A stretch of DNA of 64,000 nucleotides from a virus. Lineage: Duplodnaviria > Caudoviricetes. Position numbers and translations under genes: made by a program. Under the pieces are notes generated by a model. The model had not been told where the DNA came from. It ran no database searches and worked only from the letters and a program-made list of their open reading frames with translations. Shown here one piece after another: positions 45,529 to 64,000 of this stretch; within the stretch, counting starts at the first letter, position 1, and the number at the start of each line of letters is the position of its first letter. The DNA lies in the IMG/VR virus record IMGVR_UViG_3300037067_003400, positions 146,952 to 210,951 of that record; one strand, given 5' to 3'.

Positions 45529-48500
45529 TTACTTAAGGAGTTTTCCTGCTTCTTCATCTAAGTGCTGTTTATCAAACTTCTTTCTATTATCTTGCATTTG
45601 TATATTTGGGTTAGCTGGCATTGGGGATGCTACATTAGCATGTAAAGCTCGTTGTATAGATTCTACTATTGATTGCTGTGTTATGTCTTCGTGTGCTTCA
45701 CCTTCTACTTTAATGGAGATGGAATTATAAAGGGAAGTTTGTTTAGATACTATATCTCTATTGGTTGTAGAAAGTGGCATATCTTTTTCTTCTACTTGAT
45801 TAAGATTAGGTTTTCGTAATGCAAAGAAAGCTGCTCCAGCTGCTACTACTGCTAAAGGTATTGCATGTCTTGATAATGTTTCTCCTGCCTGGGAGAATAT
45901 TTGTTCCGCCCCGTCTACTATAGAAGCTCCTATAGAAAACTTAGAAGCAAATGGTCTTGTTATTCTTGGAAGCGCAACGTTTAATCCTTCTTGTTCTGTT
46001 CCACCTAATACTCTTAAAGCTAATCTCTTTAGTTTTTCTGGAGCTGTGTCACTATGTATAATACTTGAAAGTTCTGTTTCTGATAGTTCTCCTAAAGTCT
46101 TTTGTGATCGTGCTAATACTCTTGCATTCTTTGGGTCGGCATCTTCCCATCCCAGATGTTGATGAATATTAGAAACTAATTCAGGTGAGAACTCATCAGT
46201 ATTACCTAATATATATTTTAGTAATCCGAGTCCTTTGGTTAAACCTTTCTTTTCTCCTAACTCAGCTTGGTATCCTGGAATAATATCTGCTACTGTTTTA
46301 CCTTTTAGAAAGTCAGGAATAGATTTATTATACACGGGTAACAAACCATAGTTGTAGCCTCTTGCTTCTCCTATAGCTGCTATTTGGGTTTCAGCATTTA
46401 TGTATTTAGATTGTATAGGTTCTAATAAACTTTGTGCTTGAGCATTCATTCTTTCAGAACGGTCTACCATGTAGTTATTAAATTCACCATAAGTAAACAT
46501 AGCATGCTCTTCTGCATTAACTGTGTCTCTTGCAGACTTACCCATTTGAATGGCACGTGAGCGTATCTCATCAGCACTCATGTTAGCATACTGATCTCCA
46601 GCTATTGGATCTATCTTCTTAGCATACTCTGTTCTACTTGTTCTCCATGAAGTAGATAGCTCATTCTGCCACATCTCTTCTGATAATGAAGTTAAGTCTT
46701 CATCTGATATTCCAGCTATGCTTTTCTGCTGTAATAGTCTTTCTATGTTCTCTTCTGCTATACCTGCAGCTCGTGCTCTTGTAGCTAACTTATCTGCTTC
46801 CATAGTTGGTATCATTCTTTCAGTTATGTTTTCTAAATCAGACTGAAACCTACTTGCAGATGAAATGTTAATACTTGCGGGATTGTTACCAAGAGCTGGT
46901 ATGTTTATAGCTATTCTATTATTATAGTTTCCTCTTATATCTGCATTACGTTCCCAAGGAAATACTTGTTCTACTTCTTCCCAGTATTTTCTTAGTAAGG
47001 TATTCTTTTCCTCTGTTGTTAACTGTTGGCTTTTAGCTAAAGCTTCATAGACTGGTTTATGTACGTTCTCTATTTCAGAAAGTGTAGTAGCTCCGACTCT
47101 AAATACCTGTTCTTGAAGTCTTGGGTCTGTAACTAACTGGCCATATCTTTTTATTTCTTGCTGTGTAAGTTCTCCTGCCTGTGCTGCATCTATAAATGAC
47201 TGCATACCTGTATCAACTAAAGCTGCTCGAGCTTTCTCTGATTCTAATAGGGTAACGTCAGACATTAACCTTCTACTTCTACGCATAGCTAAATCAGTTA
47301 TAGTAGCATCGTAAGTTTTATCAAGAGCACCCTTATCAGTAAAGACTTCGAACTGAGTTTCTAATCTGTTCATTATATTATAAGCTGTGTCAGTTACTTG
47401 AACAGTTTTACCAGTTGCTATAGATTCCCCATAGTGAACTCCTTGACGTGTAGCTCTTACACCAGAGTCATCTAATCTTTCAAAACCTGTTACTTGCCAA
47501 GCTCTTCCTCTGGTTTCTCTACCAGTTACACCAAAGTAGTATTGCCCTGTAGTATTAAACTCTGATTGAGATAACTCTCCAATAGTATTATTTCCTATTA
47601 TTCCTTTTAACTTATTGAATACGGCAGTAGTTGTCTCTACATCTTTTAATCCAATATGTTCTTCTATCCAGTCTTTTCCTCTAACATCAAGAGCCTTTGC
47701 TAAAGTTTGTAGACTTAACCCACCACTAATTTGCTCATCCATGAATTGTTGAGCAATCTTAGCTATGAACATAGTATCTACTTGTTTATTAAGTTTTGAT
47801 TTTAAAGCTTCTATAACTTCTGGAGGTAAGTCTAATTCTGTTGCTCTCTGTATAATATATGGTAAGTCGAATCCCATATTATGTACTGCTATTGGTCCAG
47901 GTGTGTTTCTAAACATATGAGCTAAAGCAGTTATTCTTGTTTTCTCTGATGTAAGAGCTTCCCCAAAGTCTTTAGTATACCCGCCAGTATGTTCTAATAA
48001 GTTAGATGGAGTATACTCTTCTGGTCCATGCTGTATAGATCTTTCTGATGCTCTTAGAACTTTACCTACATCAAGAGTTTTAGTTACACTACCATCTTCT
48101 ATGGTTTGAGCAGCTATATTAATAATACTATCAGCATCAGTTTCTATATCTAAGAATGTTACTGCTCCACCAGTTAGAGCTTTCTTTATGTTGCTTAAAT
48201 GAGTCTTAGCATCTACTGCTCCAGTAGGATGCATAAACTTTAAGCCACCAGGTAGTTCATATATAGTAGCTCTATCTAATGCTGTTATATTAGGAAGATT
48301 TTCTATTACTTCTTCTGGGAGTTCTTTTAAGTTCCGAACAGCATACTTAGAAAGTTCTCTCTCTTCAGCATCTAATGCATAATACTTTCCACCAGCATCT
48401 ACTAACCTACCTTCTCGAGTTAGTAAATACTTTTTAGTAGTTCCTATCTGTTCTTGTTCTAATCGTTGTAGTTGTTTCTTAGAAGCATTAGTTATTTGAG

Positions 48501-51378
48501 TTCTATTTCTAAATATTTTTATCTTTAGGTTTGTTCTTCTTGTAACAAGATTCATAAACTCTCGTTTATATTTCTTTATTTCTCTTGTTGTTAATGAACT
48601 TCTACCAGAAAGAATTTCTCTATTTAAGAATCCTCTTACTCGTTCTACTTCTTCTTCTAATTCTCGTAGTTCTGCAAGGTCACTATCTAAAGATTTATAT
48701 AGAGTTTGTAGGCTTCTGTCAGAATTAAAAGTCTTAGCAGTCGATAGATCCCCCATGACTACTTCTATCCCAGATTCTCCTGTTTGCCAGTTAACAGTTC
48801 CTGGAATAAGTTCTTGAACAAATGGGCTTAAGTTACCTTCTTGAACTGCAGCTTGTAGATCATTCATATCTACTATAGCATAGGTAGCATTATCTATTGT
48901 TCTTATCTTACCTATTGCTTGTAGTCTTTCAGTTAAATCTACTTCTTCTGGAAGTATAGACTGTGCTGCTTGCTCGAAAGTATTATTCTCTGCTGGGATA
49001 ATATCTTCGATTCCAAAGAAGGAGTCAAGTTCTTCTTCTCCTTGGAGCTCTCCAATCTTACTGGCTTCTCCACCTTGTGATATAACTTTTCCATAGCCAT
49101 AGTCTATGTTATTTTGTATATCTAAGTTTTCAGTTGCAACGGAGAATGGGTCTTCTCCTCTTTGATATCTCTCAAAGGCATCCTGCACAGCACCTTTTAC
49201 TAAGTCTTCTGGGGTATCTATGCCCACAAGTTTTGTAGGATCAGTTAGTGCTTGATCAGCTAATGCATATATAGTAGCAAGTTGGTCTTCAGTAGCTGTT
49301 GTTTCGTGTGCAAGTCCAAGTAGTTCTGATATCTTAGAGTAACCATATGCTTCAAACTGAGCTTCTGACTTTGGATCGTTTAGATTAAAACCTAAACCAG
49401 TTTTAAAGATATCTCGTATGCTTAAGTTTCCAAGATTTTTAATACGTCTACTTGTTAGAGTTACAGCTTCTGCTTGTGGCAGGGCTGTTCTTCCCAGAGC
49501 ATTCTCAGATATAGTTTCATTAGCAAGAAGAGCTAAAGGCTCTAACTCACCTTTCATTACTATCTTAGCAAGGTCTAAGAGTTCTTCTGGTTTAAGGTCT
49601 CCTCTTATTCTAACTGCTACCTGATTTTCTCTGTGAGCTAAGTTACCTATTACATCTATAGGTGTACCCATAGCAATGTCATCATCTAATCCAGGAAGTA
49701 TACCAGTTAGTTTATATCTAACTCTATCTATAGTTGTATAATAGGTCTTATCTTCTTCAAGTGCACGAACAGCTTGCCTTGTGCTGAATGTTTCTCTATT
49801 CGTAGATAACTTTGATAATGTTTTTGAAGCAGTACGTCTCTTTAGGTCATAGATAATGTCATCCATGCTTTGGTTGAAGCGTGAGCCCATCGCATTAACA
49901 ACATCTTGATCTGCTATATCATAGACTCCAGAGAATACTTTCTTCTCTACCCTATTTACTGTAGGATATCTACCAGATATAGCTTCTAATCTTTTGGTTC
50001 TTGTCTCTAAAAAGTTTAATCTTTTTTGTGCTGCAGCACTATTACCATATTTAGTTTTCTCAAATAAATCTTTTGTGTTTCCTACAAGAGTTTCTGATCT
50101 CATCTCTGCGAATATAGATTGTATTCTTAAATACTCTGCTGTTTCTCTTTGATATTGTGCAGATCTTCTTACAAAGATATCTGCTTCTCTTGAACGTGGA
50201 GCTAACCCTGTACCATAGTTACCAATCTCATTACTTGTGAATGGGCTGTTAATACTTTCTAAATCAGGATATGCATTGTTAGCATCTTGTAATTCAAAGG
50301 AACCGAGGTTTTCATTTATTATTTTATCTTTTAAATCTGTTAGTCTATTTAGTTCTTCGAATTCTTTGTTTACTGCAGACTGACCTTGTCTCCATGCTCC
50401 ACCAGTTCTTGAAACTTTCTTTGCTACTCGAGCAGTAACTTTTAATATTTCTTCTTTGTTGCCTGTTCTTGCTACTCGTAATATAGCTTCAGCATCGTCT
50501 CCTATTATTCCTCGGAGTTGTTTTAGTAGATAGGTATACTCTCCAGAGCCAGTGCCTTCATATCCTTTAGATACGTTGATGAGCATATCCATAGCTTCAT
50601 CGGTTAGTCTACCTTTGAATGCTGCATCTGGATTAAAGGTTTCTCTAAATTGTGACATTATTGCGTCAGTATGTATAGCTTGTGACACAAATTCATGCTG
50701 AATCTTAATTCTTTTATCTAAATAGTAGATCTGCCTGTATACATCATCTGCTGTTTTTGTTGGATTAAGCACACCGCTATCTGTAGCAGCAAGATCCATT
50801 ATGATTCTAACAAGCTCTCTCTTGTTAGATGTTTTAATATACCTACATTCTTGTAGATCTGCCACCATCTTTGCTATCTGTATTTCACTTCCGCTATTCA
50901 TAGCAAAGGTACTTAACTTAATATCTTTTTCTTTTTCTAAGAATTCAATGGCTGCTAATACATCATCTCTATCTAATGTACCAATGTTGTTAGAAGTGAA
51001 GAGAGTGTTAACTCTTCTTCTAATACGATCCCATTGACTTTTGCCAAATACTGGGGCAGTTTGCCGACTGGTTTGCTTAGTAGCTGCAGCAGCTATAGAA
51101 GGGCCAGTAGAGATAGTTTCTCCTGCTGTTTTAATTTGACCTGCTACTACCTCACCTATTCTAATAGATATATTATCTAGTATAGGTTTGACTGCATTAC
51201 GAGCTATCTCATAATTTTTTATTATGCCATCTCTTGCAAAGAAAACAGTTATGACAATGCCCCACTCTAAAAGTGGCGTAACATCTCTTACCACACCTTC
51301 TTTTAAAGTTTGGTTATCTCTTACTCTATCTCCGATAGCATATTTAGTTCTGTCGTAGGAATATGTTGGTTCTGCCAT
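45529..51378 (-). CDS. Giant protein with internal DEDDh (DnaQ-like) exonuclease domain and C-terminal hydrophobic helix
   Basis: FLDIET...HNMGFD...VDTM...SLQTLA...HIGLKDV at about 47600-48165; PLAVVAAGAAFFAL near the C-terminus. Confidence 0.75.
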   Translation of the reverse strand: MAEPTYSYDRTKYAIGDRVRDNQTLKEGVVRDVTPLLEWGIVITVFFARDGIIKNYEIARNAVKPILDNISIRIGEVVAGQIKTAGETISTGPSIAAAATKQTSRQTAPVFGKSQWDRIRRRVNTLFTSNNIGTLDRDDVLAAIEFLEKEKDIKLSTFAMNSGSEIQIAKMVADLQECRYIKTSNKRELVRIIMDLAATDSGVLNPTKTADDVYRQIYYLDKRIKIQHEFVSQAIHTDAIMSQFRETFNPDAAFKGRLTDEAMDMLINVSKGYEGTGSGEYTYLLKQLRGIIGDDAEAILRVARTGNKEEILKVTARVAKKVSRTGGAWRQGQSAVNKEFEELNRLTDLKDKIINENLGSFELQDANNAYPDLESINSPFTSNEIGNYGTGLAPRSREADIFVRRSAQYQRETAEYLRIQSIFAEMRSETLVGNTKDLFEKTKYGNSAAAQKRLNFLETRTKRLEAISGRYPTVNRVEKKVFSGVYDIADQDVVNAMGSRFNQSMDDIIYDLKRRTASKTLSKLSTNRETFSTRQAVRALEEDKTYYTTIDRVRYKLTGILPGLDDDIAMGTPIDVIGNLAHRENQVAVRIRGDLKPEELLDLAKIVMKGELEPLALLANETISENALGRTALPQAEAVTLTSRRIKNLGNLSIRDIFKTGLGFNLNDPKSEAQFEAYGYSKISELLGLAHETTATEDQLATIYALADQALTDPTKLVGIDTPEDLVKGAVQDAFERYQRGEDPFSVATENLDIQNNIDYGYGKVISQGGEASKIGELQGEEELDSFFGIEDIIPAENNTFEQAAQSILPEEVDLTERLQAIGKIRTIDNATYAIVDMNDLQAAVQEGNLSPFVQELIPGTVNWQTGESGIEVVMGDLSTAKTFNSDRSLQTLYKSLDSDLAELRELEEEVERVRGFLNREILSGRSSLTTREIKKYKREFMNLVTRRTNLKIKIFRNRTQITNASKKQLQRLEQEQIGTTKKYLLTREGRLVDAGGKYYALDAEERELSKYAVRNLKELPEEVIENLPNITALDRATIYELPGGLKFMHPTGAVDAKTHLSNIKKALTGGAVTFLDIETDADSIINIAAQTIEDGSVTKTLDVGKVLRASERSIQHGPEEYTPSNLLEHTGGYTKDFGEALTSEKTRITALAHMFRNTPGPIAVHNMGFDLPYIIQRATELDLPPEVIEALKSKLNKQVDTMFIAKIAQQFMDEQISGGLSLQTLAKALDVRGKDWIEEHIGLKDVETTTAVFNKLKGIIGNNTIGELSQSEFNTTGQYYFGVTGRETRGRAWQVTGFERLDDSGVRATRQGVHYGESIATGKTVQVTDTAYNIMNRLETQFEVFTDKGALDKTYDATITDLAMRRSRRLMSDVTLLESEKARAALVDTGMQSFIDAAQAGELTQQEIKRYGQLVTDPRLQEQVFRVGATTLSEIENVHKPVYEALAKSQQLTTEEKNTLLRKYWEEVEQVFPWERNADIRGNYNNRIAINIPALGNNPASINISSASRFQSDLENITERMIPTMEADKLATRARAAGIAEENIERLLQQKSIAGISDEDLTSLSEEMWQNELSTSWRTSRTEYAKKIDPIAGDQYANMSADEIRSRAIQMGKSARDTVNAEEHAMFTYGEFNNYMVDRSERMNAQAQSLLEPIQSKYINAETQIAAIGEARGYNYGLLPVYNKSIPDFLKGKTVADIIPGYQAELGEKKGLTKGLGLLKYILGNTDEFSPELVSNIHQHLGWEDADPKNARVLARSQKTLGELSETELSSIIHSDTAPEKLKRLALRVLGGTEQEGLNVALPRITRPFASKFSIGASIVDGAEQIFSQAGETLSRHAIPLAVVAAGAAFFALRKPNLNQVEEKDMPLSTTNRDIVSKQTSLYNSISIKVEGEAHEDITQQSIVESIQRALHANVASPMPANPNIQMQDNRKKFDKQHLDEEAGKLLK

Positions 51379-52341: not shown

Positions 52342-52672
52342 CTGTTATTAACTCATCCTCAAAGATATGTCCATCTACTGTTGGATAGAGTCCTAATCCT
52401 TTTAAATCAATTTCTTCTTTAAGAAATTCTGAGTAACCCCTAATATGTAGTTTACCTTCCCACGTGGGAGGGTCTATTTTAATTATAATATCCTCGTCTC
52501 CTAACAAAGCAATAAGTGCTTCGTTAGCATCTTCTACTTTTAGCATGTCATTAGTATTCTCTGCTAAGTCTTTTCCAGTAATTCTTATTTCACTTACTTC
52601 TCTTACTGGTTCGAAAGTAACATAGAAGGTTGAGCCAAAGCTTGTTTCTACTAATAAGTATTTAGTCTCCAC
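52304..52672 (-). CDS. Acidic hypothetical protein
   Basis: ORF track; overlaps both neighbours. Confidence 0.65.
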   Translation of the reverse strand: METKYLLVETSFGSTFYVTFEPVREVSEIRITGKDLAENTNDMLKVEDANEALIALLGDEDIIIKIDPPTWEGKLHIRGYSEFLKEEIDLKGLGLYPTVDGHIFEDELITDVQEIPIENTSS

Positions 52673-53225
52673 TTAGATAACTATGCACTCCATCTGCTAC
52701 TGCTTTTGCTAATAGGTTTCGTGTTCTATCCTTTAGCATAATAGATAAGTCGTGTGGATTGGATATAAAGCCAATCTCAACTAAGATACAAGATTTGCAC
52801 TTTAGTTTCTGTGGGTACCTTAACATATAGAATCCAGTTTTATATCTACTGGTGTCGGCAATTATCCCAGTGCTATATCTCTTTAGTAAAGCTGTTTCAT
52901 TAATAGTATCTTCTACTATCCAAGCAAGTTTCTTTGACTCTGGGAAATTTCCCCGATACCAAACAGAAGCTCCCTGTGGTACTTTAGAGGCAACACTATT
53001 TAGATGGCAGGAGATTAGTATGTCTCCTTCTCTTGCTAATGTGCGTCTAAACTTAGGTTCTAAAGTTTCATCTGTGTCTCTGGTAAACTTAGTCTTATAT
53101 CCATATTTTCTTAGGAAGTGCCCCAGCATTAAAGCAAACTCCAATGCCAGGTTCTTCTCTTGATAGACTCCATTTACTGCACCTGGGTCTGAGCCTCCAT
53201 GTCCAGGATCTATTACTATATTCAT
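52662..53225 (-). CDS. N-acetylmuramoyl-L-alanine amidase (Amidase_3), probable endolysin
   Basis: IVIDPGHGGSDPGA, EK, SCHLN, LVEIGFISN. Confidence 0.93.
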   Translation of the reverse strand: MNIVIDPGHGGSDPGAVNGVYQEKNLALEFALMLGHFLRKYGYKTKFTRDTDETLEPKFRRTLAREGDILISCHLNSVASKVPQGASVWYRGNFPESKKLAWIVEDTINETALLKRYSTGIIADTSRYKTGFYMLRYPQKLKCKSCILVEIGFISNPHDLSIMLKDRTRNLLAKAVADGVHSYLSGD

Positions 53226-53229
53226 ATTG

Positions 53230-54165
53230 TTACCACTGTATTCCAAAGTCTTTATATATTCTATAACGAATATGAGTTTCTAATGCTTTGTCAAAGTTAT
53301 CTTGCGTAGTAGATACCACAGATACTTTAACTCCTCTTGAGCTTTTCCAGTAGCCTTCTTCTACAGGCTCATCTATAACTTCTACTATAGACTTTCCACT
53401 ATTGAAGGCAGCATATGTAGCTGGTCCAGCATGTCCTATTACTAAATCACAGTTTGGATGCGTAGCCAATACAACCCTGTCAGCTATCTTCATATCTGGT
53501 AGAACGTATACCGGGTTGAAGTCTAATCCACAAGTATTAAATAAGTTTGATATATCATCTGACTCTGGCATTATATCCACTAAGGCAAATGCTCCACTTA
53601 TTTTCTTCCTAAGTTCTTTAGAGCTCATTAGTATCTTCTTAATTTCTTCTAAAGATTTTTTAGATGGTACTACTGGAATTAAACTTCCTGGGTCTACGTC
53701 GTAGTTTACTCCCATATCAGAGCATATAGATACGTAATACCCCATGGCTTGATGCCATTGTGGTGGGTAGTCTGCATCGAATGTAGCATACTCTTCTGGA
53801 AAAGAAACAGAAGATGTAGGAACGTTAGCTTCTTTAGCTCTTGCTTTTACTAACATATCTATTTCTTTTTTTAGAATTCTTCTACGCTTAAGCTCTTTAG
53901 CTTTAGTAGTTACTATAGTAGTTGTTAGTTTGCATACGTGATCAAAGTTATCAAGTAACTCTTGTTTTGTAGCAACTTTTGATAAGACATTGTTATATAC
54001 TTTATCAATCATCCAGAACTTGTATGCATAGTTTGTTTTATCTACATCATCTATTACAAGTTGAATTTTATATTCTGGAAAGTTGTATTTAAATTTATCT
54101 AATGCTGTAAGAGCATTAATATAATCTGTATCATTTCCTTTAAATTCAAAAAGTATCGGTTTCAT
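53230..54165 (-). CDS. Divergent GT9 (heptosyltransferase-fold)-like protein
   Basis: N-terminal ILF...D...ALDKFKYNFPEYKIQLV and C-terminal CDLVIGHAGPATYAAFNSGKSIV resemble the GT9 motifs. Confidence 0.5.
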   Translation of the reverse strand: MKPILFEFKGNDTDYINALTALDKFKYNFPEYKIQLVIDDVDKTNYAYKFWMIDKVYNNVLSKVATKQELLDNFDHVCKLTTTIVTTKAKELKRRRILKKEIDMLVKARAKEANVPTSSVSFPEEYATFDADYPPQWHQAMGYYVSICSDMGVNYDVDPGSLIPVVPSKKSLEEIKKILMSSKELRKKISGAFALVDIMPESDDISNLFNTCGLDFNPVYVLPDMKIADRVVLATHPNCDLVIGHAGPATYAAFNSGKSIVEVIDEPVEEGYWKSSRGVKVSVVSTTQDNFDKALETHIRYRIYKDFGIQW

Positions 54166-54425: not shown

Positions 54426-55664
54426 CTATCCTTTATCCTTGAAGCTGGCATCATAGTTGCCATCAGCATAAAGTTTGATTAGGATTCCACCGTTGCTTGG
54501 AGGTGGCATCTCTGCTTTGTAGGCATAGGTTTCTTCCCATCTTAAAAAGGATGGGCATACTATGCTCCATTGGGTCTTGTATTCTAAACAGCATTCTATA
54601 GGATTCTCCACTATACAGGCTTGAGTATTACAACTACTATTGTGTGAGTGTCCTTGTACGATAAAATTCATAAAGTCTGTAAATCCACTTACTTTGTTCA
54701 AACTTGACATCATACCGGCTTTACTTGTTCCAGCACCAGTACCATGTCTTGCATATAGTTTCCATTTGTTTCCACAGCCTAAGATAGAGCAGTAGACAGG
54801 TCCACTAAAGTAAGGGATGTTAAGGTATTTAGCAATTACCTCTGATGGGTCTATACCAGCTTTAGTCATGGTTCTTTTCTCATGATTACCTGGTAACATA
54901 AATAATACTTTGTGAGCGATAGGAGCAAGTAACTTGCATAACTCATCTATCTGAGAAGTCGGTGGTATATCCTGGTCGTAGGTCATACCTCGTCCATCGT
55001 CTAATGCATTCTCCTCAAGGTCTCCCCCAAAGAATGTAAGTAGGTTAGGTGTTTCCTCTATCCACTTTAGATACTTGGAAAACTTTTCATGCTTATGCCC
55101 ACAGTGTCCAAAGTGTACGTCGTAAAGAGGAGTTATATAAACACACTCTTCTGTGTTATCAAACATATCATCAGGTAGCTGTACTAACTGATAAGGTTGA
55201 AAGAAATCTCCATATCTGGAAGGAGAGTTATAGAAAGACCAGTTTCTTTCTGCGAGTTTAAGTTCTTCTGTTTTAACTTCTGGGAGAAGTATGTACCGTT
55301 CACGTCCCCACCCATCTACTTGTTCAAACAGATTATAACTTGGATACTCTTCATCAAGTAAAGCTTCACTCTTGTTACCAAACTTAGCACTGATCTCATT
55401 AGTTAAGCGTGCTTTCTTTAGAAACAATATAAAGTTTGTTTTATCTTTAGCAGTTAGTTCTGGTGTGTCATCTGTTACACATGTAACAGGGTTTGCTTGT
55501 TTAGATCTTGGTCGTGGAGTAATCATCTCATCGTTCTGTCTTAGAAATCGTATGAAGTGATCTACTCTTCCCATAGTAGTGTCAAATCTATCAGCTAATT
55601 CTAAATTGCTTAGTCCTTCAGAGATAGCTAATAGAAACTCGGACTTACTTTCAGGCATCCACAT
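54426..55664 (-). CDS. Calcineurin-like metallophosphoesterase with N-terminal HTH
   Basis: DVHFG, GGD, PGNHE, RHG, GHSH; GLSNLELADRF HTH; start revised to ATG 55664 after GGAGGA. Confidence 0.85.
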   Translation of the reverse strand: MWMPESKSEFLLAISEGLSNLELADRFDTTMGRVDHFIRFLRQNDEMITPRPRSKQANPVTCVTDDTPELTAKDKTNFILFLKKARLTNEISAKFGNKSEALLDEEYPSYNLFEQVDGWGRERYILLPEVKTEELKLAERNWSFYNSPSRYGDFFQPYQLVQLPDDMFDNTEECVYITPLYDVHFGHCGHKHEKFSKYLKWIEETPNLLTFFGGDLEENALDDGRGMTYDQDIPPTSQIDELCKLLAPIAHKVLFMLPGNHEKRTMTKAGIDPSEVIAKYLNIPYFSGPVYCSILGCGNKWKLYARHGTGAGTSKAGMMSSLNKVSGFTDFMNFIVQGHSHNSSCNTQACIVENPIECCLEYKTQWSIVCPSFLRWEETYAYKAEMPPPSNGGILIKLYADGNYDASFKDKG

Positions 55665-55698
55665 TAAATATTGTCCTCCAATATATTCATCTACTATA

Positions 55699-55726
55699 AT
55701 TATACCCACTTTTGCAAATATTATGC
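55699..55726 (-). promoter_or_regulatory. Putative promoter GCATAA-N13-GGGTATAAT
   Basis: Conserved motif and spacing. Confidence 0.6.
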
Positions 55727-55732
55727 AATAAG

Positions 55733-58700
55733 TTAGTAACTATTTAACGCATTTATCAAATCTTGCTCCCTGTGATGTTTGATATCTACTTGAACATTCA
55801 CATCATCAGATTGTAAGTTTCTATCTTCTTTGGTAGATACTATAATCTTTAGATTCGATAATCCTTTCCCAGATAGGATTTGATTAAGGTGATCTTGTAT
55901 ACTTGCACTATTACCATGGACTGTAGGAAGCTCTATATTCTTGGTATGAACTTCAGACTCTTCTACGTTAGTTGGGTATAGTCCAAAGTCCATAGGATCC
56001 ATACCTTCTGCAACTACTGTTCTTGTTTTAAGTTCTTCTAAATTAACTTCAGGCCTGAATCCTGCCCAGTCTTTTCCTGGTAAAGTATGTGTCTTAAAGT
56101 ACTCTTGTAGTAAAGGTCTATCTGGTATTCTACCTGCATCTATACCCATCTGCAATCCTAATAACCTTTTCTGGTAATTAGGAAGCAACTTAAATATCTT
56201 TTCTCTTTCTCCTGGAGTGCTCTGCGTAAGGAATCCTTGTATTAGTTCTCTTTCGTATTTAGGGAATGCTTTAATTGTATTGAGTAGCGGCCCCCCAGCT
56301 TCTTGCCCATACATAGTTGATCTATACTTATCTCTATAGAGTAAAGCTTGAGTGGCAACTGGACCTAAAGCAAATTGTTCTTTTCTTCCTTGCAAATCTT
56401 GTATTTGTTTTCGTAAAGCAAGTTCTTCTTTAGAACCTTTCTTATTAGCTCTTAATAATCTTAATCGTTGCTCTGTTAGGAGTTTAATCTGGTTCTTTCT
56501 CCAGGCACCTATTGCTTCATATCTATTAGATAAAGCTTCTACATCTACTCCTTCTTTTTCTTTAGCAATCTGAGCTGTCTTATCATAGAGTCCTCTGTAC
56601 TTCATATATTCTAAGATATCGTAGTACTCTTCTATGTCTCTACGCTTTTGCGTTCTACCTGGCACCCATGCTTCATCAGAACGTGCATCATGAACCTGTC
56701 TTGCTAAAGATAATATACCACCAACAGCTGCCCCTACTCCTGCAGCTTTCCAACGTAAGGCTCTGCTCTTGAAGAAGAATGAAGTAAAGACTCCAGCTCC
56801 TACAGAAGCTCCTAATAATCCTCTTGACATAAATGAAGTGTAACTTGGTTTTATAAAACTACCTATTGGATCTTCCCACTTAGCAGAACGTGATCCATAA
56901 GTATCTCTTGCATAAAGTTCATAAGGTGAATTAACATCCATAAACTTTGTATTATGCACGATAGCATTTATTGTAGCAAAGTTATCATCATCTTCTATTT
57001 CTATATCAACTGTACTATCTTGATACGTAGACTCTTTTATTTCTTGTATACCATATAGGATATAGTCTTGTAAATATACTCTATGATAGAATCTTTGTGG
57101 GTTTGGTTTTACTTCATTGATATATGTACAAGTTGAATCAATAAAAGTTGATAATGCATCTTGTTTTCCTATACAAACACGATATAATGGTACTTCCCTT
57201 TGTATTCCCAATGTTAATATTGCTGGTATATTCCATAATTCTATTAGTGCATCTCTAAGCCACACTAATAAATCAAGAGCATTCATACCAATTGTATCAT
57301 ATCTACTATAACCTTTTTTTGTACCATCTCCTCGTAGTAATCCTTTTATAAACTCTGCTCGTAATTCATTAGAAGTAAGTAGAGTTTCTGGTGCGTGTTT
57401 TTTATCTTTAGCTCCTACAAATGTATCTACTATTTCTGCTAAATAACAATTACCTACTCTTACTGAAGTTACGTTTCCATTGTACTGTATACTAGGAAGC
57501 CCAAATCCACATTTTTCTACTAAAGTAGCTACATCGTCTATATAATCTATCTCGTTTGAAGAGAATGTAAATATTGTATAAGATAGTTTATCATTACTTT
57601 TTGAAGTACATCCTTCTGCTGCATAGTATCCTAGTAATCGTGCTAGATCTTTTGTTACTTGTAAACTTTTGTTTCTATAGCATTTTTTTGCACCATTATT
57701 AGATGGTACCCACACGCTTGAATCATTACATTTAAATCTTTGTGTATTTAAACTATATAGGTCTATATAAGTATCTTCTACATTATTCTCAAATTTTCTA
57801 GGTGTGTATACTACAAAGTCATGTTCTTTTATGTCTCCTGCTAAAACAAACTCTGGTATAGGGTTGTTTCCATATGGTAATTGTTCTACCCATACTCCTT
57901 TTTGTTTTTTTCGTGTTGGAAGTCCACCACGTACTATTAGGATTGGGTGATCATCTGTTACTGTTATTGGTATATTGCTACTAAATAATTTAATTTCTAA
58001 TATTGTTTTACCTTTACTTTGTGGTTGTGCTGTTACAACTGATTTAAATTTACCACTAGAAGTTAGCAATTTATCACCATGTTTTATATCTTTTGCATGC
58101 TTTACTCCAGAGTTAGTAATTATTTGGGTGTAAGGAGCTACACAATGAATAGGTGTTCGTGAATGTGCTAACCTTTCCCATCGTTTACCTGCTGCTATCT
58201 CATGATTAGAGAATCTTGCCCATACTCCAGTAGCTGACCAGTCACCTTCTTTTTCTGTACCTATCCCATTACGTAGTAAGTCTCTGTTTACATTTCTACC
58301 ATTAGTCAGTATAACTGCATGCTGTGTATTTAATACATCATCAGCAAATCTATTTAATGGATCAGCATTTACTAATGCTCTTATCTTAGAGCCTTTACGT
58401 ATATTGAATTGTGAGAATAAGAACTCTGCTGGTGACATACCTTCTGGAGGTGTACCATATTCTTCTAATATTCTTTCCTGGGAATTTCTTATTCCTGCAA
58501 GTCTTAGAGGGTGTTCGTCTTCATTTACTGAAATAGTATTAGCATCTATTATTTCTTTTACTGTATAATTTTCTGTGTCTACTTTTGCTGATAAGAAATG
58601 ATATGGATAGATGTTTAGTTTTCTCTTTTGTAATGTGGCTCTATGCTTAGCTGCTTGTATTCTATCATTTTCAGCTGGAGTTATTTGTGTATCACCAACT

Positions 58701-61700
58701 AAGCTACCTTTTAAAGCGTTGTATTCTTCTGACCAAGGTGAATTGTGAGTTGCATAGCCTAGCACACAGAAGGAGTTATCTTCTTCTATAGTCCAGTTAT
58801 ATACTAAACCTTCGTACGCTACTTCTTCTATTTTTGTAACTTGGCATACTAAGTAGTCTTCATCTATCCAAGCGTTTCTTGCTGACACTACTGGATATTC
58901 TATATTTGGTTTGGTGCCTGTAACCCAGACTATGAAATCATATGCTACACTACCCGACATTCTTAATCTATAGCTTGGTTGGTTACTATCTCCTATACCA
59001 TCAGTCCTTGTACTTTCTCCTATAGAAGCTACAAAACCATTCTGTAATAGCATATCTCTTATTCTTAGTGCCAACTCTAAGCTTATAGTTGTAGCTTCTA
59101 CTTGTAACTGTTTTCCATATTTTGTAGAATCTTGTGGGGTGATAATAGAGTAGCACCCATCTCCAGCGAAATATCTTTTTAGGAGACTTTTTTGTATCTC
59201 TGGACTTAAATCTAACGACCAATTAGGGAGTCTTTTCGTGGAAGAATTATTACCAAACAATTCTGTAAATACATTACCTATTAATTGATTTCCTATTGCT
59301 ATATATCTACTATTATTTTCTTCTTTAGTATAATGTTGTATATTATTATCACATATATTTTTAAAGTATTTTTCTAAATATTGTGCTTCTTCTATTTCTT
59401 TTATATGAAGACTAAATACTATACCTTTATTGTCTCCATTAGAGGAGCCTTCTGCTAAGTATAATCCTATTACTTCTCCTAAGTCTTCATTAATAGGTAT
59501 TTTACTAAGACAGAATTTATTACATCCTTGTTTTGTTTTATGTATCCACCCATCATCTAGTCGGTATGTATAAGGAAAAGGTATTAGTTTTTCTATGTCA
59601 ATATTATTAGGTGAGGTAGACCTTTGTGGTATTGGATATAAAACAACATCTTCTACTTCTAAATCTCCTAAAGGTACCCATGTTCTATTATTTATTGGAT
59701 ACACATACTTTCTAAAATCTTCTCCATAAGTAGCACACCCCTCACGTTTAGCTCTCCATTTCATAGTAGAAAGACATCTTTTTGGTCCTTTTATAGCATA
59801 GATTGGGTGCTCTAATGTGGCTTCTAATTGGTCAAAGTTAAATGTACCTATATATAACTTTCTAAGTTTAGGTCCATAGGGTCTTGTAGCGCATCGTAGT
59901 ACTTTTCTTGTAGTACCAGTATGGGAAATAACAAGATCGTCTATCTGTACTTCTGTGGCTAATTTAATAGAACCATCGCTCATTCTAATTTTAGTATCTG
60001 GTTTTACGCATGTATCAGCAAGTATCTCAAGTCTGGTAACTTTGTCATAGAGGGCAGCACGAGAAATCTCTCCCTGATCTACCATACTATCTACTCTATT
60101 TCTTGCCTCAGTTACTCTGCCTATTGTTTTGTCAAATCTTCTTCTATTAAATGTGACATTAGTAAGTCTAACTTGTGAAGGATCATCTCTATTTACATAG
60201 GCAAGCATACCTTTATTAATATTAGTTTCATGTAGATAGAAGTTTAGCTGATCTAAATGTGAATCAAATACTTGTCCAGAAGCAAAACGTTTTCCTGATA
60301 AGGACTTTATTTCTCCTACTACATTCTCACCATTTATATCTAAGATAGCATCTATATGTCCAGAGATTCCAAGTTTCTCATCAAAGATTTCTGTTTCTTT
60401 TGATTTTAGAATACCCATCCTATTCCAGGTATTCTGGATAGCTTTATGGATTTGAGTACCTTCTTCCATAACACGTTCGTTATAGAAGTTAGTAGGTTCC
60501 CTTTCCATCATCATTTCATAAACTAAATCATCAACAGGCTTTCCTAAAGAAGAGGCTCTTGTCTGCATAATCCTATTACGATGTACTCGTTCATATGCAT
60601 CTCCAGGTAGTCTTACTTCACCTGTTTTTATTCTTGTGTTATGCGTTGCTATACCAGCCACACAAAAAGAATTATCTACACCTACTTCAAAACCATATAC
60701 TATATTTACGCTATCTATTTCATTAATACTACAAACTCTTAGAAATACATAATCATCGGTTATATATGACCATGCACAACTAGCTATTTTGTAATCTGTT
60801 TTTATTTCATACCCAACTAAATTAGCAAAGTTTTGTGCGCTATGTCCACGTATAACAAGATGCCACGAGGTTTCTGTATTTATATCTTTTCCATTTAGTT
60901 TTGGTTTTTTGGATGGAGCTGGATTAGAAATTAAATTACTAACAATTCCAAAAGATAGAAGTATTTTACGTATTTGTAATAAAAGTATTTCATTTGCTAA
61001 ACATAGGCTGGCTTTTAATTTTCCTGTCTTATCTAAGAAAATACAGCCATCACCATCCCATAACCCCTTTATAAGACTTATCAAACAATCATCTGGTAGT
61101 GACCAAATAAGTTCTGGTAGGGTTTTATCTTTAGCCCCTTTATTAAATAATGTGTATAGTACTTCTGAAACTATATTACTAAATATCCAAGCAGAAGCCC
61201 CATTTGTATTATCAATATCTTTCCAGCTACTTGTAGCATATGTGCTTATCTGCATGCTACCAGTAAAAGCTTTATTAAACATACCTTTTTCTGTATTATG
61301 CAAAGAAAATTCTGTATAACTTTTTCCAATAGAACCTTCTGATAGATATAAACCAAATAAATATGCTACTTCTGGTGTAATTTTTATAAATCTACTTACT
61401 CTATGTAACCCGCCCTTTTTCTTAGCCTTTTGTGCAGACTCCATCTCTCTTGGTGTAGCACTTATACTTGAGCAAATGTCCTTTCTATCCTTTCCAACGT
61501 ATATTATATCTTCTTGTTCTAAATAGTTATAACACCTAATTACACCATCCCTTATATTACTTTGGGTATATACAAAATTAGTATCGTACTTGCTATTTGT
61601 TAATTGTGCTAAATCTAAAGTTGTTTCTTTTAATACTGGTTTTTTAGGAATTGGATAACCTACATACTCTCCTATATTTACATCCTTTATTTTTTTCCAA

Positions 61701-64000
61701 ACAGTTTCATTAGAGTTTCTCATATTATTAGTGCTAACTAATACTGGATGATTTTCTGACATTTGTATAGTAGTTCCATGTAATGAGGCTACTTTTATTT
61801 CAAAAACTTTTTCATTCTGATCTATTGATCTGACAGCTATTTTTTTTATGGGTTTTTTATTTCCAAGGTGAGTAGTTATTACATCATCACATCTAATATT
61901 TATAGCCTTTGTAAATTGAAGATAGTTAACCTCTATTAGTGTATTTTCTGAAACGCAGTATGGGTCTCCTGTTTGGAAGTCGAGGAAATAATTATTCCCA
62001 GGAAGCCAAGAGTTAGCCATTGAGTTAGGTACTGGGTTGTATTCCTCAACATTTCTAAAGCGATGCGGCATGAAACGTCTACCAATTTCACTCCACATTC
62101 CACCAATACCACCAAGGTTTGCTTCCCAGAATCTACGTTCCCAGCTGTATCCTCTACTGGCTTCAGCTATTACTGTTCCCTGTCTTGTTCCAAATGGCAT
62201 TCCAGCCATCCATCCATAGAGACCTGCGTATTCTCTGGATAGGTAGCCACCCATTTCCATATTAGATATTGTTTCTAAGTTTTCAAAGTCTTCTTGTGAT
62301 GTTACATTAGTTTTATCGTAAAGGTCTAATAGTCTTGATTTAGTATAGTCTGCTCCTTGAGCTTTAAGAGTTCTATTTATTCTTTCAATATCTCTCTTAG
62401 CAATTCCTTTTATACCATTGCCTTTATCTTTAGTTCCAAGTCTCGAGGTATCAGTAGGAGCACCACCTGGAAGTTGCTCTATCATAAACTGCCCAGCTGG
62501 AGATACTGTTACTATGGAGCCAGCTGGAGCTATTCCAACATCTTCTGCTCCTCCACCAGTACCACCACCTAATCCAAGTTCTGTAGCAAGTCCAGTTTCA
62601 TCTGCAGGTAATCCTCGTCCACCAGCTTTTATATTACGGTTCATTCGTTCCATATCTCTTTTAGATATAGAGCCACCTTTATTTTCTGGTAAATACTCTG
62701 GATGTAATACTCTTTGAGGTTTTATTACTCTGCCTATAGTTGCATTAACTAATGGCCCCCATAGAGCTTCTTTAGTTGCTAATGGTCCTGAAACTACATA
62801 GGGTCTATCTGGATTATCTCCTACGCTATGCTTGTTTTCCCACCAGTATGGGTCTAACATTCTTCGTAGTGGAGCTAATGGATGTCTTACATTAGGAAGT
62901 AAGGTATGTGCATAATAAGAATTACTATTTAGGTCTGCATTCTCTGCGCCCTGCCAATGTGAGTAAGCTAATTGGTATGGGTCAGGTAAGAAGTATTCTG
63001 GATTTTCTCCATACCAAGGAGTACGTGTGCCAAAGCTCCAGAAGCGACCTCTTCTAACTGGAACGTACCCACTCTCCAGTTGTTGTTTGGTTTCTTCTGG
63101 TGTATTACCTGATAAGTAGTTGTCCATTCCAGGATGAGTTTTATTAAACCTATCCCAGTTATGTACTTTTGAGAAGGCTAACTTTGCATTAGCTCTTACA
63201 TTAGCTTTCCATTCATCTGGTGAAGTTCCTGTGAGGTTCTCAGATTCCCAGTTAAAGTATTTCCAGGCTTCTATTCCAGCTACTATTGGGAGTACTCTCT
63301 TGAATATTAAGCCTTTCATTATGTCTTTACCAGAACCTAATGACTCTGCTCCGAGTCCTAATCCAGTTTCTGCTAAAGGCTCATTAAGTCTTGAACTTAG
63401 GAAGTACCAGAACATAGAAGATCTGGTCATTGAGTCTGGTTTCTTTATGCCAGACCACCAGGCTGTAGTATATTGTTGAATTGCGTCTGATGTAGCAAAC
63501 CTTCTTATCTTATCAAAGAAGGATGTACCTGACTTCATGGATTCATTTAAGGCTTGTAGTATAGGAGCGTGTTCTTTTATTATTAATCTCTGTGGAACAT
63601 TTTGCTCTACAGTATCTGTAAAGGTATCGAATATACTTAGATGTTTACCCACCATGTTCTGGGAAATTTCTCGTAAGCTATCGGAGTGAAGCGGATCCGA
63701 TACCATATAGTTATAAGCTTGTGTAGAACCATGAACTTTATTTTCTAATAAATCTTGGATTCTAACTCCATGATATTTAGCAGCTGCCTCATCAAGAGTT
63801 TCTTGTTCTACTCCTTGAACCCTTGCAAGTCTTTCTAAGAAAGGCATTGTCTTTGCAGGGTCTCCAGTTTTTTGTATAAACTCTTCCTGTAAAGCATTCC
63901 TCATCATATCAAGCCCTGTTATTGGGTCTCTGGTTCCTAAGACAGCATCTTCAAATGGTCCAACACCTTTAGCTGCTCTTACTTGACTTAGTACACTTTC
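55733..64000 (-). CDS. Giant multidomain protein (5' end beyond window) with three inteins, a Cas4-like nuclease and an SNase-like domain
   Basis: Frame open to 64000. GTQIH...E...ISGHIDAI...EIKS...QLNFY (PD-(D/E)xK). VKEIIDANTI...LRLAGI...NVNRDLLRNG (thermonuclease-like). Confidence 0.85.
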   Translation of the reverse strand, partial: ESVLSQVRAAKGVGPFEDAVLGTRDPITGLDMMRNALQEEFIQKTGDPAKTMPFLERLARVQGVEQETLDEAAAKYHGVRIQDLLENKVHGSTQAYNYMVSDPLHSDSLREISQNMVGKHLSIFDTFTDTVEQNVPQRLIIKEHAPILQALNESMKSGTSFFDKIRRFATSDAIQQYTTAWWSGIKKPDSMTRSSMFWYFLSSRLNEPLAETGLGLGAESLGSGKDIMKGLIFKRVLPIVAGIEAWKYFNWESENLTGTSPDEWKANVRANAKLAFSKVHNWDRFNKTHPGMDNYLSGNTPEETKQQLESGYVPVRRGRFWSFGTRTPWYGENPEYFLPDPYQLAYSHWQGAENADLNSNSYYAHTLLPNVRHPLAPLRRMLDPYWWENKHSVGDNPDRPYVVSGPLATKEALWGPLVNATIGRVIKPQRVLHPEYLPENKGGSISKRDMERMNRNIKAGGRGLPADETGLATELGLGGGTGGGAEDVGIAPAGSIVTVSPAGQFMIEQLPGGAPTDTSRLGTKDKGNGIKGIAKRDIERINRTLKAQGADYTKSRLLDLYDKTNVTSQEDFENLETISNMEMGGYLSREYAGLYGWMAGMPFGTRQGTVIAEASRGYSWERRFWEANLGGIGGMWSEIGRRFMPHRFRNVEEYNPVPNSMANSWLPGNNYFLDFQTGDPYCVSENTLIEVNYLQFTKAINIRCDDVITTHLGNKKPIKKIAVRSIDQNEKVFEIKVASLHGTTIQMSENHPVLVSTNNMRNSNETVWKKIKDVNIGEYVGYPIPKKPVLKETTLDLAQLTNSKYDTNFVYTQSNIRDGVIRCYNYLEQEDIIYVGKDRKDICSSISATPREMESAQKAKKKGGLHRVSRFIKITPEVAYLFGLYLSEGSIGKSYTEFSLHNTEKGMFNKAFTGSMQISTYATSSWKDIDNTNGASAWIFSNIVSEVLYTLFNKGAKDKTLPELIWSLPDDCLISLIKGLWDGDGCIFLDKTGKLKASLCLANEILLLQIRKILLSFGIVSNLISNPAPSKKPKLNGKDINTETSWHLVIRGHSAQNFANLVGYEIKTDYKIASCAWSYITDDYVFLRVCSINEIDSVNIVYGFEVGVDNSFCVAGIATHNTRIKTGEVRLPGDAYERVHRNRIMQTRASSLGKPVDDLVYEMMMEREPTNFYNERVMEEGTQIHKAIQNTWNRMGILKSKETEIFDEKLGISGHIDAILDINGENVVGEIKSLSGKRFASGQVFDSHLDQLNFYLHETNINKGMLAYVNRDDPSQVRLTNVTFNRRRFDKTIGRVTEARNRVDSMVDQGEISRAALYDKVTRLEILADTCVKPDTKIRMSDGSIKLATEVQIDDLVISHTGTTRKVLRCATRPYGPKLRKLYIGTFNFDQLEATLEHPIYAIKGPKRCLSTMKWRAKREGCATYGEDFRKYVYPINNRTWVPLGDLEVEDVVLYPIPQRSTSPNNIDIEKLIPFPYTYRLDDGWIHKTKQGCNKFCLSKIPINEDLGEVIGLYLAEGSSNGDNKGIVFSLHIKEIEEAQYLEKYFKNICDNNIQHYTKEENNSRYIAIGNQLIGNVFTELFGNNSSTKRLPNWSLDLSPEIQKSLLKRYFAGDGCYSIITPQDSTKYGKQLQVEATTISLELALRIRDMLLQNGFVASIGESTRTDGIGDSNQPSYRLRMSGSVAYDFIVWVTGTKPNIEYPVVSARNAWIDEDYLVCQVTKIEEVAYEGLVYNWTIEEDNSFCVLGYATHNSPWSEEYNALKGSLVGDTQITPAENDRIQAAKHRATLQKRKLNIYPYHFLSAKVDTENYTVKEIIDANTISVNEDEHPLRLAGIRNSQERILEEYGTPPEGMSPAEFLFSQFNIRKGSKIRALVNADPLNRFADDVLNTQHAVILTNGRNVNRDLLRNGIGTEKEGDWSATGVWARFSNHEIAAGKRWERLAHSRTPIHCVAPYTQIITNSGVKHAKDIKHGDKLLTSSGKFKSVVTAQPQSKGKTILEIKLFSSNIPITVTDDHPILIVRGGLPTRKKQKGVWVEQLPYGNNPIPEFVLAGDIKEHDFVVYTPRKFENNVEDTYIDLYSLNTQRFKCNDSSVWVPSNNGAKKCYRNKSLQVTKDLARLLGYYAAEGCTSKSNDKLSYTIFTFSSNEIDYIDDVATLVEKCGFGLPSIQYNGNVTSVRVGNCYLAEIVDTFVGAKDKKHAPETLLTSNELRAEFIKGLLRGDGTKKGYSRYDTIGMNALDLLVWLRDALIELWNIPAILTLGIQREVPLYRVCIGKQDALSTFIDSTCTYINEVKPNPQRFYHRVYLQDYILYGIQEIKESTYQDSTVDIEIEDDDNFATINAIVHNTKFMDVNSPYELYARDTYGSRSAKWEDPIGSFIKPSYTSFMSRGLLGASVGAGVFTSFFFKSRALRWKAAGVGAAVGGILSLARQVHDARSDEAWVPGRTQKRRDIEEYYDILEYMKYRGLYDKTAQIAKEKEGVDVEALSNRYEAIGAWRKNQIKLLTEQRLRLLRANKKGSKEELALRKQIQDLQGRKEQFALGPVATQALLYRDKYRSTMYGQEAGGPLLNTIKAFPKYERELIQGFLTQSTPGEREKIFKLLPNYQKRLLGLQMGIDAGRIPDRPLLQEYFKTHTLPGKDWAGFRPEVNLEELKTRTVVAEGMDPMDFGLYPTNVEESEVHTKNIELPTVHGNSASIQDHLNQILSGKGLSNLKIIVSTKEDRNLQSDDVNVQVDIKHHREQDLINALNSY
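56951..58144 (-). mobile_element. Intein 3 (398 aa) with LAGLIDADG endonuclease
   Basis: TPIH|CVAPYT...TDDHPI...LGYYAAEG...FIKGLLRGDG...AIVHN|T. Confidence 0.93.
58742..60010 (-). mobile_element. Intein 2 (423 aa) with LAGLIDADG endonuclease
   Basis: LADT|CVKPDT...TLEHPI...IGLYLAEG...RYFAGDG...GYATHN|S. Confidence 0.93.
60638..61957 (-). mobile_element. Intein 1 (440 aa) with LAGLIDADG endonuclease
   Basis: GDPY|CVSENT...SENHPV...LFGLYLSEG...LIKGLWDGDG...VAGIATHN|T. Confidence 0.93.

Follow-up and report, generated by a model that had tools for sequence, protein, structure and literature searches.

The last 64,000 nucleotides (the window) of a 210,951-bp (211-kb) contig from an uncultured phage (IMG/VR record IMGVR_UViG_3300037067_003400, positions 146,952 to 210,951) encode a giant precursor protein, labelled here P0001, in which three inteins stand around two nuclease-like domains. 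By homology of its core, staphylococcal-nuclease-like (SNase-like) and C-terminal regions, P0001 is a member of the virion protein family of gp145 from Bacillus thuringiensis phage 0305phi8-36, whose other members are labelled P0002, P0003 and so on. Its layout is extein, intein 1, Cas4-like PD-(D/E)xK domain, intein 2, SNase-like domain, intein 3, extein. An earlier interpretation made from the letters alone (the sequence-only reading) had proposed this arrangement, and it is borne out by the reading frame, the intein boundaries, Pfam and a profile hidden Markov model (HMM) of the family inteins. The most probable explanation, to which we assign a probability of about 80%, is that these are canonical selfish inteins, which entered conserved motifs of the host gene through three independent, site-specific invasions.

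In this scenario, three different LAGLIDADG inteins would have colonised a gp145-family gene separately, each in a highly conserved motif. They would excise themselves by the class-1 route, that is, through an N-S acyl shift at Cys1, transesterification to the Thr or Ser at position +1, and cyclisation of the terminal Asn. The four exteins would thus be joined into one mature protein with the architecture of its intein-free relatives: core, Cas4-like nuclease, SNase-like oligonucleotide/oligosaccharide-binding (OB) fold, hydrophobic segments and C-terminal domain. The inteins would persist through their homing endonucleases, which would copy them into empty alleles during co-infection. The bracketing of the two nuclease-like domains would then be coincidental rather than a regulatory design, because three of the 12 or more target sites in the family happen to flank an optional nuclease insertion and an OB fold. 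The direct observations behind this explanation are the anatomy of the inteins, their patchy distribution, their grouping into site-specific clades, the conservation of their sites and the folds of the two domains.

Three full-length inteins in one open reading frame

The precursor gene was assigned to the gp145 family of giant virion proteins from its open reading frame (ORF) and from homology across all four exteins, and it lies on the minus strand at 55733..64000. The frame is uninterrupted from position 64000 to the stop codon at 55733-55735 and encodes 2755 residues in 8,268 nt without an internal stop. It is open at its 5' end because the contig stops at window position 64000. In the alignment with the intein-free homologue P0002, residue 3 of P0001 pairs with residue 561, and therefore about 560 N-terminal residues are missing. 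The mature spliced protein would measure approximately 2,050 residues, 1,494 of them within the window. The giant ORF of the sequence-only reading is hence real, with the correction that it is N-terminally incomplete.

A circular continuation of the ORF was considered and rejected: the contig start encodes another protein on the minus strand and does not repeat the contig end, so that the missing N-terminus is not simply wrapped around. Since the contig lacks a terminal repeat, both of its ends cut genes. The ORF running off the contig start (G000:C1:1-1200, minus strand) has a high content of Thr, Gly, Ser and Val, and by eye its product resembles a beta-helix or tail-fibre protein. A megablast search of the whole region against the phage collection returned no match.

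All three insertions are full-length class-1 inteins with a LAGLIDADG endonuclease, as identified by Pfam and by HMM, and all lie on the minus strand with the host gene. Intein 1 (440 residues; amino acids 682-1121, 60638..61957) occupies site s9 at GDPY/T, with the borders GDPY/CVSEN...ATHN/TRIK. Intein 2 (423 residues; amino acids 1331-1753, 58742..60010) occupies site s10 at ILADT/SP, with the borders LADT/CVKPD...ATHN/SPWS, and intein 3 (398 residues; amino acids 1953-2350, 56951..58144) occupies site s11 at TPIH/TKF, with the borders TPIH/CVAPY...IVHN/TKFM. P0001 matches the Pfam families LAGLIDADG_3 (93.1 bits, in three stretches) and Intein_splicing (65.8 bits, cut-off 35.8), and the HMM, which was built from 11 inteins of the gp145-like family, covers each of the three inteins end to end (E-values from 1e-129 to 1e-149).

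The translation, Pfam and the HMM agree with the earlier description of the splicing residues (Cys1, block B His, terminal His-Asn and Thr, Ser and Thr at +1), which is correct throughout. Cys1 is found at residues 682, 1331 and 1953, and the block B motif (T/S)xxH, read off the translation, is SENH, TLEH and TDDH in inteins 1 to 3, respectively. The C-terminal His-Asn and the following +1 residue read THN/T, THN/S and VHN/T. Each intein also has paired LAGLIDADG motifs with acidic residues (GLYLSEGS and GLWDGDG in intein 1, GLYLAEGS and RYFAGDG in intein 2, GYYAAEGC and GLLRGDG in intein 3). Judging from these residues, the three inteins are probably able to splice and their endonucleases are probably active. 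Their GC content (0.30-0.33) is lower than that of the exteins (0.35-0.40).

The insertions are in frame and are precisely absent from gp145, from CDS0026 of Moorella phage MTATph1 and from P0002. These three intein-free homologues, aligned at the junctions as the sequence-only reading had suggested, run straight across each of them without gaps. The empty sites of P0002 retain the +1 Thr, Ser and Thr, and their DNA is identical to that of the spliced junctions at 23-28 of 42 nt. Once spliced in silico, the junctions match the family consensus sequences GDPYxK..GExRLPG, ILAD(V/T)(A/S)PYS and DTPxxTKFL. These results bear on the possibility that the arrangement is an artefact of assembly or annotation, produced by a chimeric frame or by free-standing homing-endonuclease genes wrongly read through. 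An artefact would be in keeping with an incomplete ORF that reaches the contig end. However, the frame contains no stop, the insert borders are exact to the residue against all three intein-free homologues, and homologous inteins lie at the same sites in independent metagenomes. We therefore regard an artefact as having practically no chance of being correct.

Patchy occupation and separate lineages of the inteins

The exteins of P0001 share 32-42% identity per segment with gp145 (ORF145, ABS83703.1, 'virion structural protein'), and BLASTP comparison of the four extein regions with gp145 gives E-values of 5e-61, 1e-45, 4e-28 and 5e-18. They are also homologous to the Moorella phage CDS0026. 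The gp145-like family comprises 318 representatives of 50%-identity clusters at E<=1e-30, and we scanned 167 fetched members with the intein profile. The large majority (138, or 83%) have no intein, and the remaining 29 carry from one to four: one in 21 members, two in five, three in two (P0001 and the fragment P0026) and four in a single member. On the basis of the junction motifs, the inteins occupy at least 12 insertion sites, nine of which lie in the conserved core, while the other three are those used in P0001. When local conservation was measured across 116 aligned homologues, sites s9, s10 and s11 fell in the 97th, 100th and 93rd percentile, respectively. Elsewhere in the family, occupation of one of the three sites does not depend on that of the others. 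In particular, the s9 intein is present in P0155 and P0161, both of which lack the Cas4-like domain, and it is therefore not functionally tied to that domain.

Two other carriers deserve mention. P0144 has four inteins of 144-246 residues, three of which are minis devoid of endonuclease, and two of the four are separated by only 5 residues. The s9 intein of P0101 directly precedes the TSLDRFKILA motif, yet a normal spacer of 191 residues emerged elsewhere in the protein from the motif-spacing test.

To compare the inteins with one another, we relied on pairwise identity and on a tree of 40 inteins obtained by a quick search. The three inteins of P0001 are 20-24% identical to one another, and are closer to alleles at the same site in other phages (37% for intein 1, with P0007; 49.5% for intein 2, with P0003; 46-49% for intein 3). 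In the tree they fall into three different site-specific clades, with a support of 100 for s10, of 99 for s11, and within 99-100 for the s9 subclade. When the labels of the 13 sites are mapped on the tree they require 16 changes, compared to a mean of 27.9 after shuffling, and none of the 200 shuffles was as low. The phylogeny that had been proposed as a check thus separates the inteins by site. A single ancestral intein that spread to the other two sites by intragenic transposition would explain their common class-1 and LAGLIDADG_3 architecture and the end-to-end match of all three to one family HMM. This origin is nevertheless highly improbable, given that mutual identity is far below that to same-site alleles and that each intein belongs to a different, well-supported clade.

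At s11, horizontal transfer is indicated, since the inteins share 46-49% identity although the exteins of their hosts share only 28-31%. Not all data point in the same direction, and several weigh against three selfish invasions. At s9 and s10 the identity between inteins is about that between exteins, which is compatible with long vertical co-descent and with some domesticated role. No relative with more than 62% extein identity was found, so that there is no documented recent gain or loss of an intein. The tree comes from a quick search and gives uncertain positions to the short mini-inteins. The sequence data may also be compatible with splicing that is slow or conditional.

The sequence-only reading had favoured a regulatory function, in which splicing or cleavage at the intein ends controls folding or releases each nuclease from a polyprotein. 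In a fuller form of this idea, conditional splicing or cleavage at the N- or C-terminal intein ends, for example in response to redox state, time or assembly, would hold the nuclease inactive until maturation or free the two domains as separate products. The location of the inteins exactly at the borders of both nuclease-like domains would suit this function. So would the 8-10 cysteines in each intein, in a precursor with cysteine-free exteins, since redox-sensitive splicing is possible in principle, and the fact that the s9 and s10 inteins are about as diverged as their hosts. On the other hand, the same domains are encoded contiguously in the 83% of fetched members that are intein-free, the sites are filled independently, and s9 carries its intein even in members that have no nuclease domain. 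All residues needed for full splicing, including the +1 nucleophiles, are intact, and the junctions restore consensus motifs. Moreover, the prediction for the intein-free form is a single compact body (predicted template modelling score (pTM) 0.83), not a chain of products that could be separated, and the loss of catalytic residues from the SNase-like domain leaves no second nuclease to release (see below). We consider a regulatory role very unlikely, although less so than intragenic transposition. The predominance of intein-free homologues and the scatter of inteins over so many sites are the pattern that the sequence-only reading itself had named as speaking for ordinary selfish inteins; together with the compact intein-free model, they count against the inference it preferred. 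Its simpler alternative, three independent invasions of conserved extein motifs, is instead supported by the patchiness, the clades and the conservation of the sites.

All 40 complete family inteins begin with Cys, and the +1 residue is Ser or Thr, never Cys, at every listed family junction. Not one of the 1,494 extein residues of P0001 is a cysteine; the long ORFs of the genome would lead one to expect approximately 19. Outside the inteins, cysteine is entirely absent from 155 of the 167 family members and occurs once in each of the others. The exclusive use of Ser and Thr at +1 fits a host that excludes cysteine from its mature chain.

In their anatomy, the three inteins resemble class-1 LAGLIDADG phage inteins such as the MarsHill GyrA intein (bioRxiv 10.1101/2020.12.14.422802), with which they share Cys1, the block B His, the terminal His-Asn and the +1 Ser or Thr, as well as the nested endonuclease, the insertion in conserved motifs, the patchy distribution and the site-specific alleles. 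They differ in the presence of three inteins per polypeptide and in the absence of +1 Cys from any intein of the gp145 family. The known phage inteins usually lie in enzymes of replication and nucleotide metabolism and in terminases, whereas the host of P0001 inteins is a giant virion protein. A survey of actinobacteriophage inteins does list tape measure, portal and minor capsid proteins among the hosts (bioRxiv 10.1101/2025.01.02.630785), and therefore a structural host is not unprecedented. The earlier remark that three inteins in a non-replicative protein are unusual is justified in light of the general literature; within the gp145-like family, however, inteins are common.

Hosts with inteins at multiple sites are known among replication enzymes, such as ribonucleotide reductase (RNR), DnaB and DNA polymerases (Novikova et al. 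2016, PMC4760082). As in these heavily invaded hosts, inteins of the gp145-like family use many independent sites within the most conserved motifs. RNR, DnaB and DNA polymerases are however enzymes of the replisome or of nucleotide metabolism with known active sites, whereas the most invaded region of the gp145 family is a core with no match to a solved fold. With at least 12 sites and up to four inteins per chain, this family of particle proteins is as heavily invaded as RNR or DnaB. An intein-rich family with no known role in replication weakens the tie of inteins to replisome proteins and supports a simpler rule, according to which inteins settle wherever a motif is conserved enough for safe homing in co-infecting phages. 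The cysteine-free host, at whose junctions only Ser or Thr serves as the +1 residue, clearly illustrates how a host constrains the inteins that can settle in it, and the positions of the inteins point to functionally critical motifs of a widespread giant virion protein. The main interest of P0001 is thus at the level of its family, a group of cysteine-free virion proteins that forms a hot spot for inteins and whose core matched no solved fold.

Invasion of this genome is not limited to P0001. Outside the window we identified at least three more LAGLIDADG inserts, at loci L005, L006 and L007 (G000:C1:87612-91130, plus strand; 92685-94811, plus strand; 142880-145273, minus strand), which brings the total to at least six such elements. 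Their hosts are the RNR large subunit, a GDP-mannose-dehydratase/epimerase-like gene of the short-chain dehydrogenase/reductase (SDR) type with an insert of approximately 350 residues, and a 798-residue ORF that matches Intein_splicing and LAGLIDADG_3. The SDR dehydratase/epimerase-like gene is an unusual intein host.

Domains of the predicted spliced protein

Extein 1 (amino acids 1-681, 61958..64000, minus strand), delimited by homology to gp145 and P0002, holds the conserved core motifs and no cysteine. The motifs are GRxW..G.TP, PL.P, DPYxxE.KH, DRPY, GG.GG..SEIxRRF, NP..N.M..WLPG and GDPY. Extein 2 (amino acids 1122-1330, 60011..60637, minus strand) continues with the RLPGxxYE motif, followed by a domain similar to Cas4 and lambda exonuclease (core at approximately 60083-60577). 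This domain carries all three of the D, ExK and QxxxY motifs. It is similar to Cas4-type exonuclease families of phages (phrog_1706, E = 7e-22) and aligns with Sulfolobus Cas4 (PDB 4ic1) over D...ExK and QxxxY, and it is thus a PD-(D/E)xK fold. Since it has zero cysteines and hence no four-cysteine iron-sulphur (Fe-S) cluster, we refer to it as Cas4/lambda-exonuclease-like and not as Cas4. Two differences set it apart from Cas4, lambda exonuclease and MGME1 (PDB 4ic1, 3slp, 5zyu): it lacks the Fe-S cysteine cluster, and it is an optional insertion inside a virion protein of approximately 2,000 residues. In the motif-spacing test, 19 of 86 scorable family members have only a short spacer in its place, and it is absent from the Moorella protein. 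In gp145, which has the same order of motifs as P0001 and no inteins, the Cas4-like region contains a large extra insertion.

Extein 3 (amino acids 1754-1952, 58145..58741, minus strand) contains an OB fold of the staphylococcal nuclease type (core at approximately 58280-58591) whose catalytic residues have been replaced. A profile of this region from 105 family members matches thermonuclease (E = 4e-8), and the domain is an SNase (PF00565) OB fold by fold and by sequence homology. The positions equivalent to the calcium-binding and catalytic residues D21, D40, E43 and R87 in the profile alignment are n, k/v, k and t/i; they are not conserved, and only the equivalent of R35 is kept. At the corresponding positions, P0001 has the sequences IDANT and RLAGIRNSQ. 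Compared to staphylococcal nuclease and the SN domains of Tudor-SN (PDB 1sta, 3bdl), the domain has thus lost the conserved catalytic residues. It is most likely an OB-fold module for binding rather than catalysis, in the manner of those SN domains of Tudor-SN that are themselves non-catalytic. The second nuclease proposed by the sequence-only reading is therefore probably no nuclease. Only the Cas4-like domain retains a full set of catalytic motifs and is apparently an active nuclease.

Extein 4 (amino acids 2351-2755, 55736..56950, minus strand) comprises, from reading of its sequence, two Gly/Ala-rich hydrophobic segments of glycine-zipper-like type, a charged segment that looks coiled-coil-like by eye, and a conserved C-terminal domain. 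Over approximately 415-450 aligned residues, extein 4 shares 32-35% identity with gp145 and the Moorella protein, and 24 homologues with this region were found.

To gain insights into the spliced form, we modelled P0002 in place of spliced P0001, as it is the closest intein-free homologue (approximately 62% extein identity). The AlphaFold2 model of residues 720-1700, based on 74 relatives, has a mean predicted local distance difference test (pLDDT) score of 85.3 and the pTM given above. The central 980 residues of this homologue are predicted to form a single compact multidomain body, and two domains of the model match known folds. The conserved core (P0002:838-1245, equivalent to extein 1) is modelled confidently in its conserved parts (mean pLDDT 78.7) and has no structural match in PDB by Foldseek and VIA-align, which does not prove that the fold is new. 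Pfam has no family for the core in the intein-free proteins P0002, P0009, P0013 and gp145, and PHROGs recognises only the Cas4-like domain in P0002 and nothing in gp145, P0013 and P0019. A match in BFVD to a 'Large polyvalent protein associated domain-containing protein' (TMq 0.49, 17% identity) makes the link to polyvalent proteins a lead only. The paper on polyvalent proteins mentions neither inteins, nor SNase, nor the uncultured 211-kb phage (PMC5512222).

According to the note in its GenBank record, gp145 was detected in phage particles by mass spectrometry, and it is the only protein of the family known to be present in virions. Mature P0001 may be packaged in the particle and ejected into the host with the DNA. 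The literature search returned no function assigned to gp145 and no paper describing inteins or a nuclease in its family. In 0305phi8-36, the gp145 gene is located between those of the tail chaperones gp143 and gp144 and that of gp146, the assigned tape measure (PMC2147016). A tape-measure role does not fit the P0001 family, because tape measures are extended, mostly helical proteins whose length determines that of the tail, whereas the centre of P0002 is predicted to be compact and globular, and because that role in 0305phi8-36 is assigned to gp146.

Genes next to the precursor

The gene of the family directly follows the tail chaperones in relatives; in the window, the upstream genes lie beyond the contig end. 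On the P0002 contig, it comes after the sheath gene and several small genes. Downstream, the two contigs have the same order: a Metallophos nuclease, a gene of 305/311 residues, a gene of 180/215 residues and a giant ORF. The first of these genes in the window (54426..55709, minus strand) lies directly downstream of P0001 and encodes a calcineurin-type phosphoesterase of 427 residues, similar to Mre11/SbcD ('DNA repair exonuclease'; phrog_7339, E = 1.6e-25; Pfam Metallophos). Its counterpart, with 35% identity, also adjoins the P0002 gene, and therefore a nuclease stands beside a nuclease-bearing virion protein in both genomes.

A more far-reaching hypothesis starts from the nine of the 12 or more sites that lie in the core. 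The inteins would mark a catalytic or DNA-binding centre; the core, the Cas4-like nuclease and the Mre11-like neighbour would form a new kind of machine for processing DNA ends, carried in the particle and injected with the genome; and the cysteine-rich inteins would act as a checkpoint during maturation, so that the machine stays inactive as long as it is in the producing cell. We consider this hypothesis unlikely as a whole, if somewhat less so than the regulatory role discussed above.

The giant ORF at 45529-51378 (minus strand) encodes 1949 residues with a single cysteine. It is homologous to the equally placed giant ORF of the P0002 contig (24-30% identity in two segments) and may be another ejected virion protein. 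No PHROG family, PDB sequence match or DxDxD motif was found in it, and its sole Pfam signal is a weak match to DNA_pol_B_exo1 (E = 0.0076, amino acids 1073-1184). It was also considered as the counterpart of 0305phi8-36 gp146 and rejected, as the comparison revealed no similarity. Another ORF, of 1943 residues (34607-40438, minus strand), has a weak match to the N-terminal part of the 0305phi8-36 baseplate hub gp147 (25% over 161 residues, E = 8e-11). Between these two giant ORFs of the virion-gene region sits a family-A DNA polymerase of 694 residues with a 3'-5' exonuclease domain (43379-45463, minus strand; PF00476, E = 6e-77; PF01612, E = 3e-18). Finally, an amidase_3 endolysin is encoded at 52662-53246.

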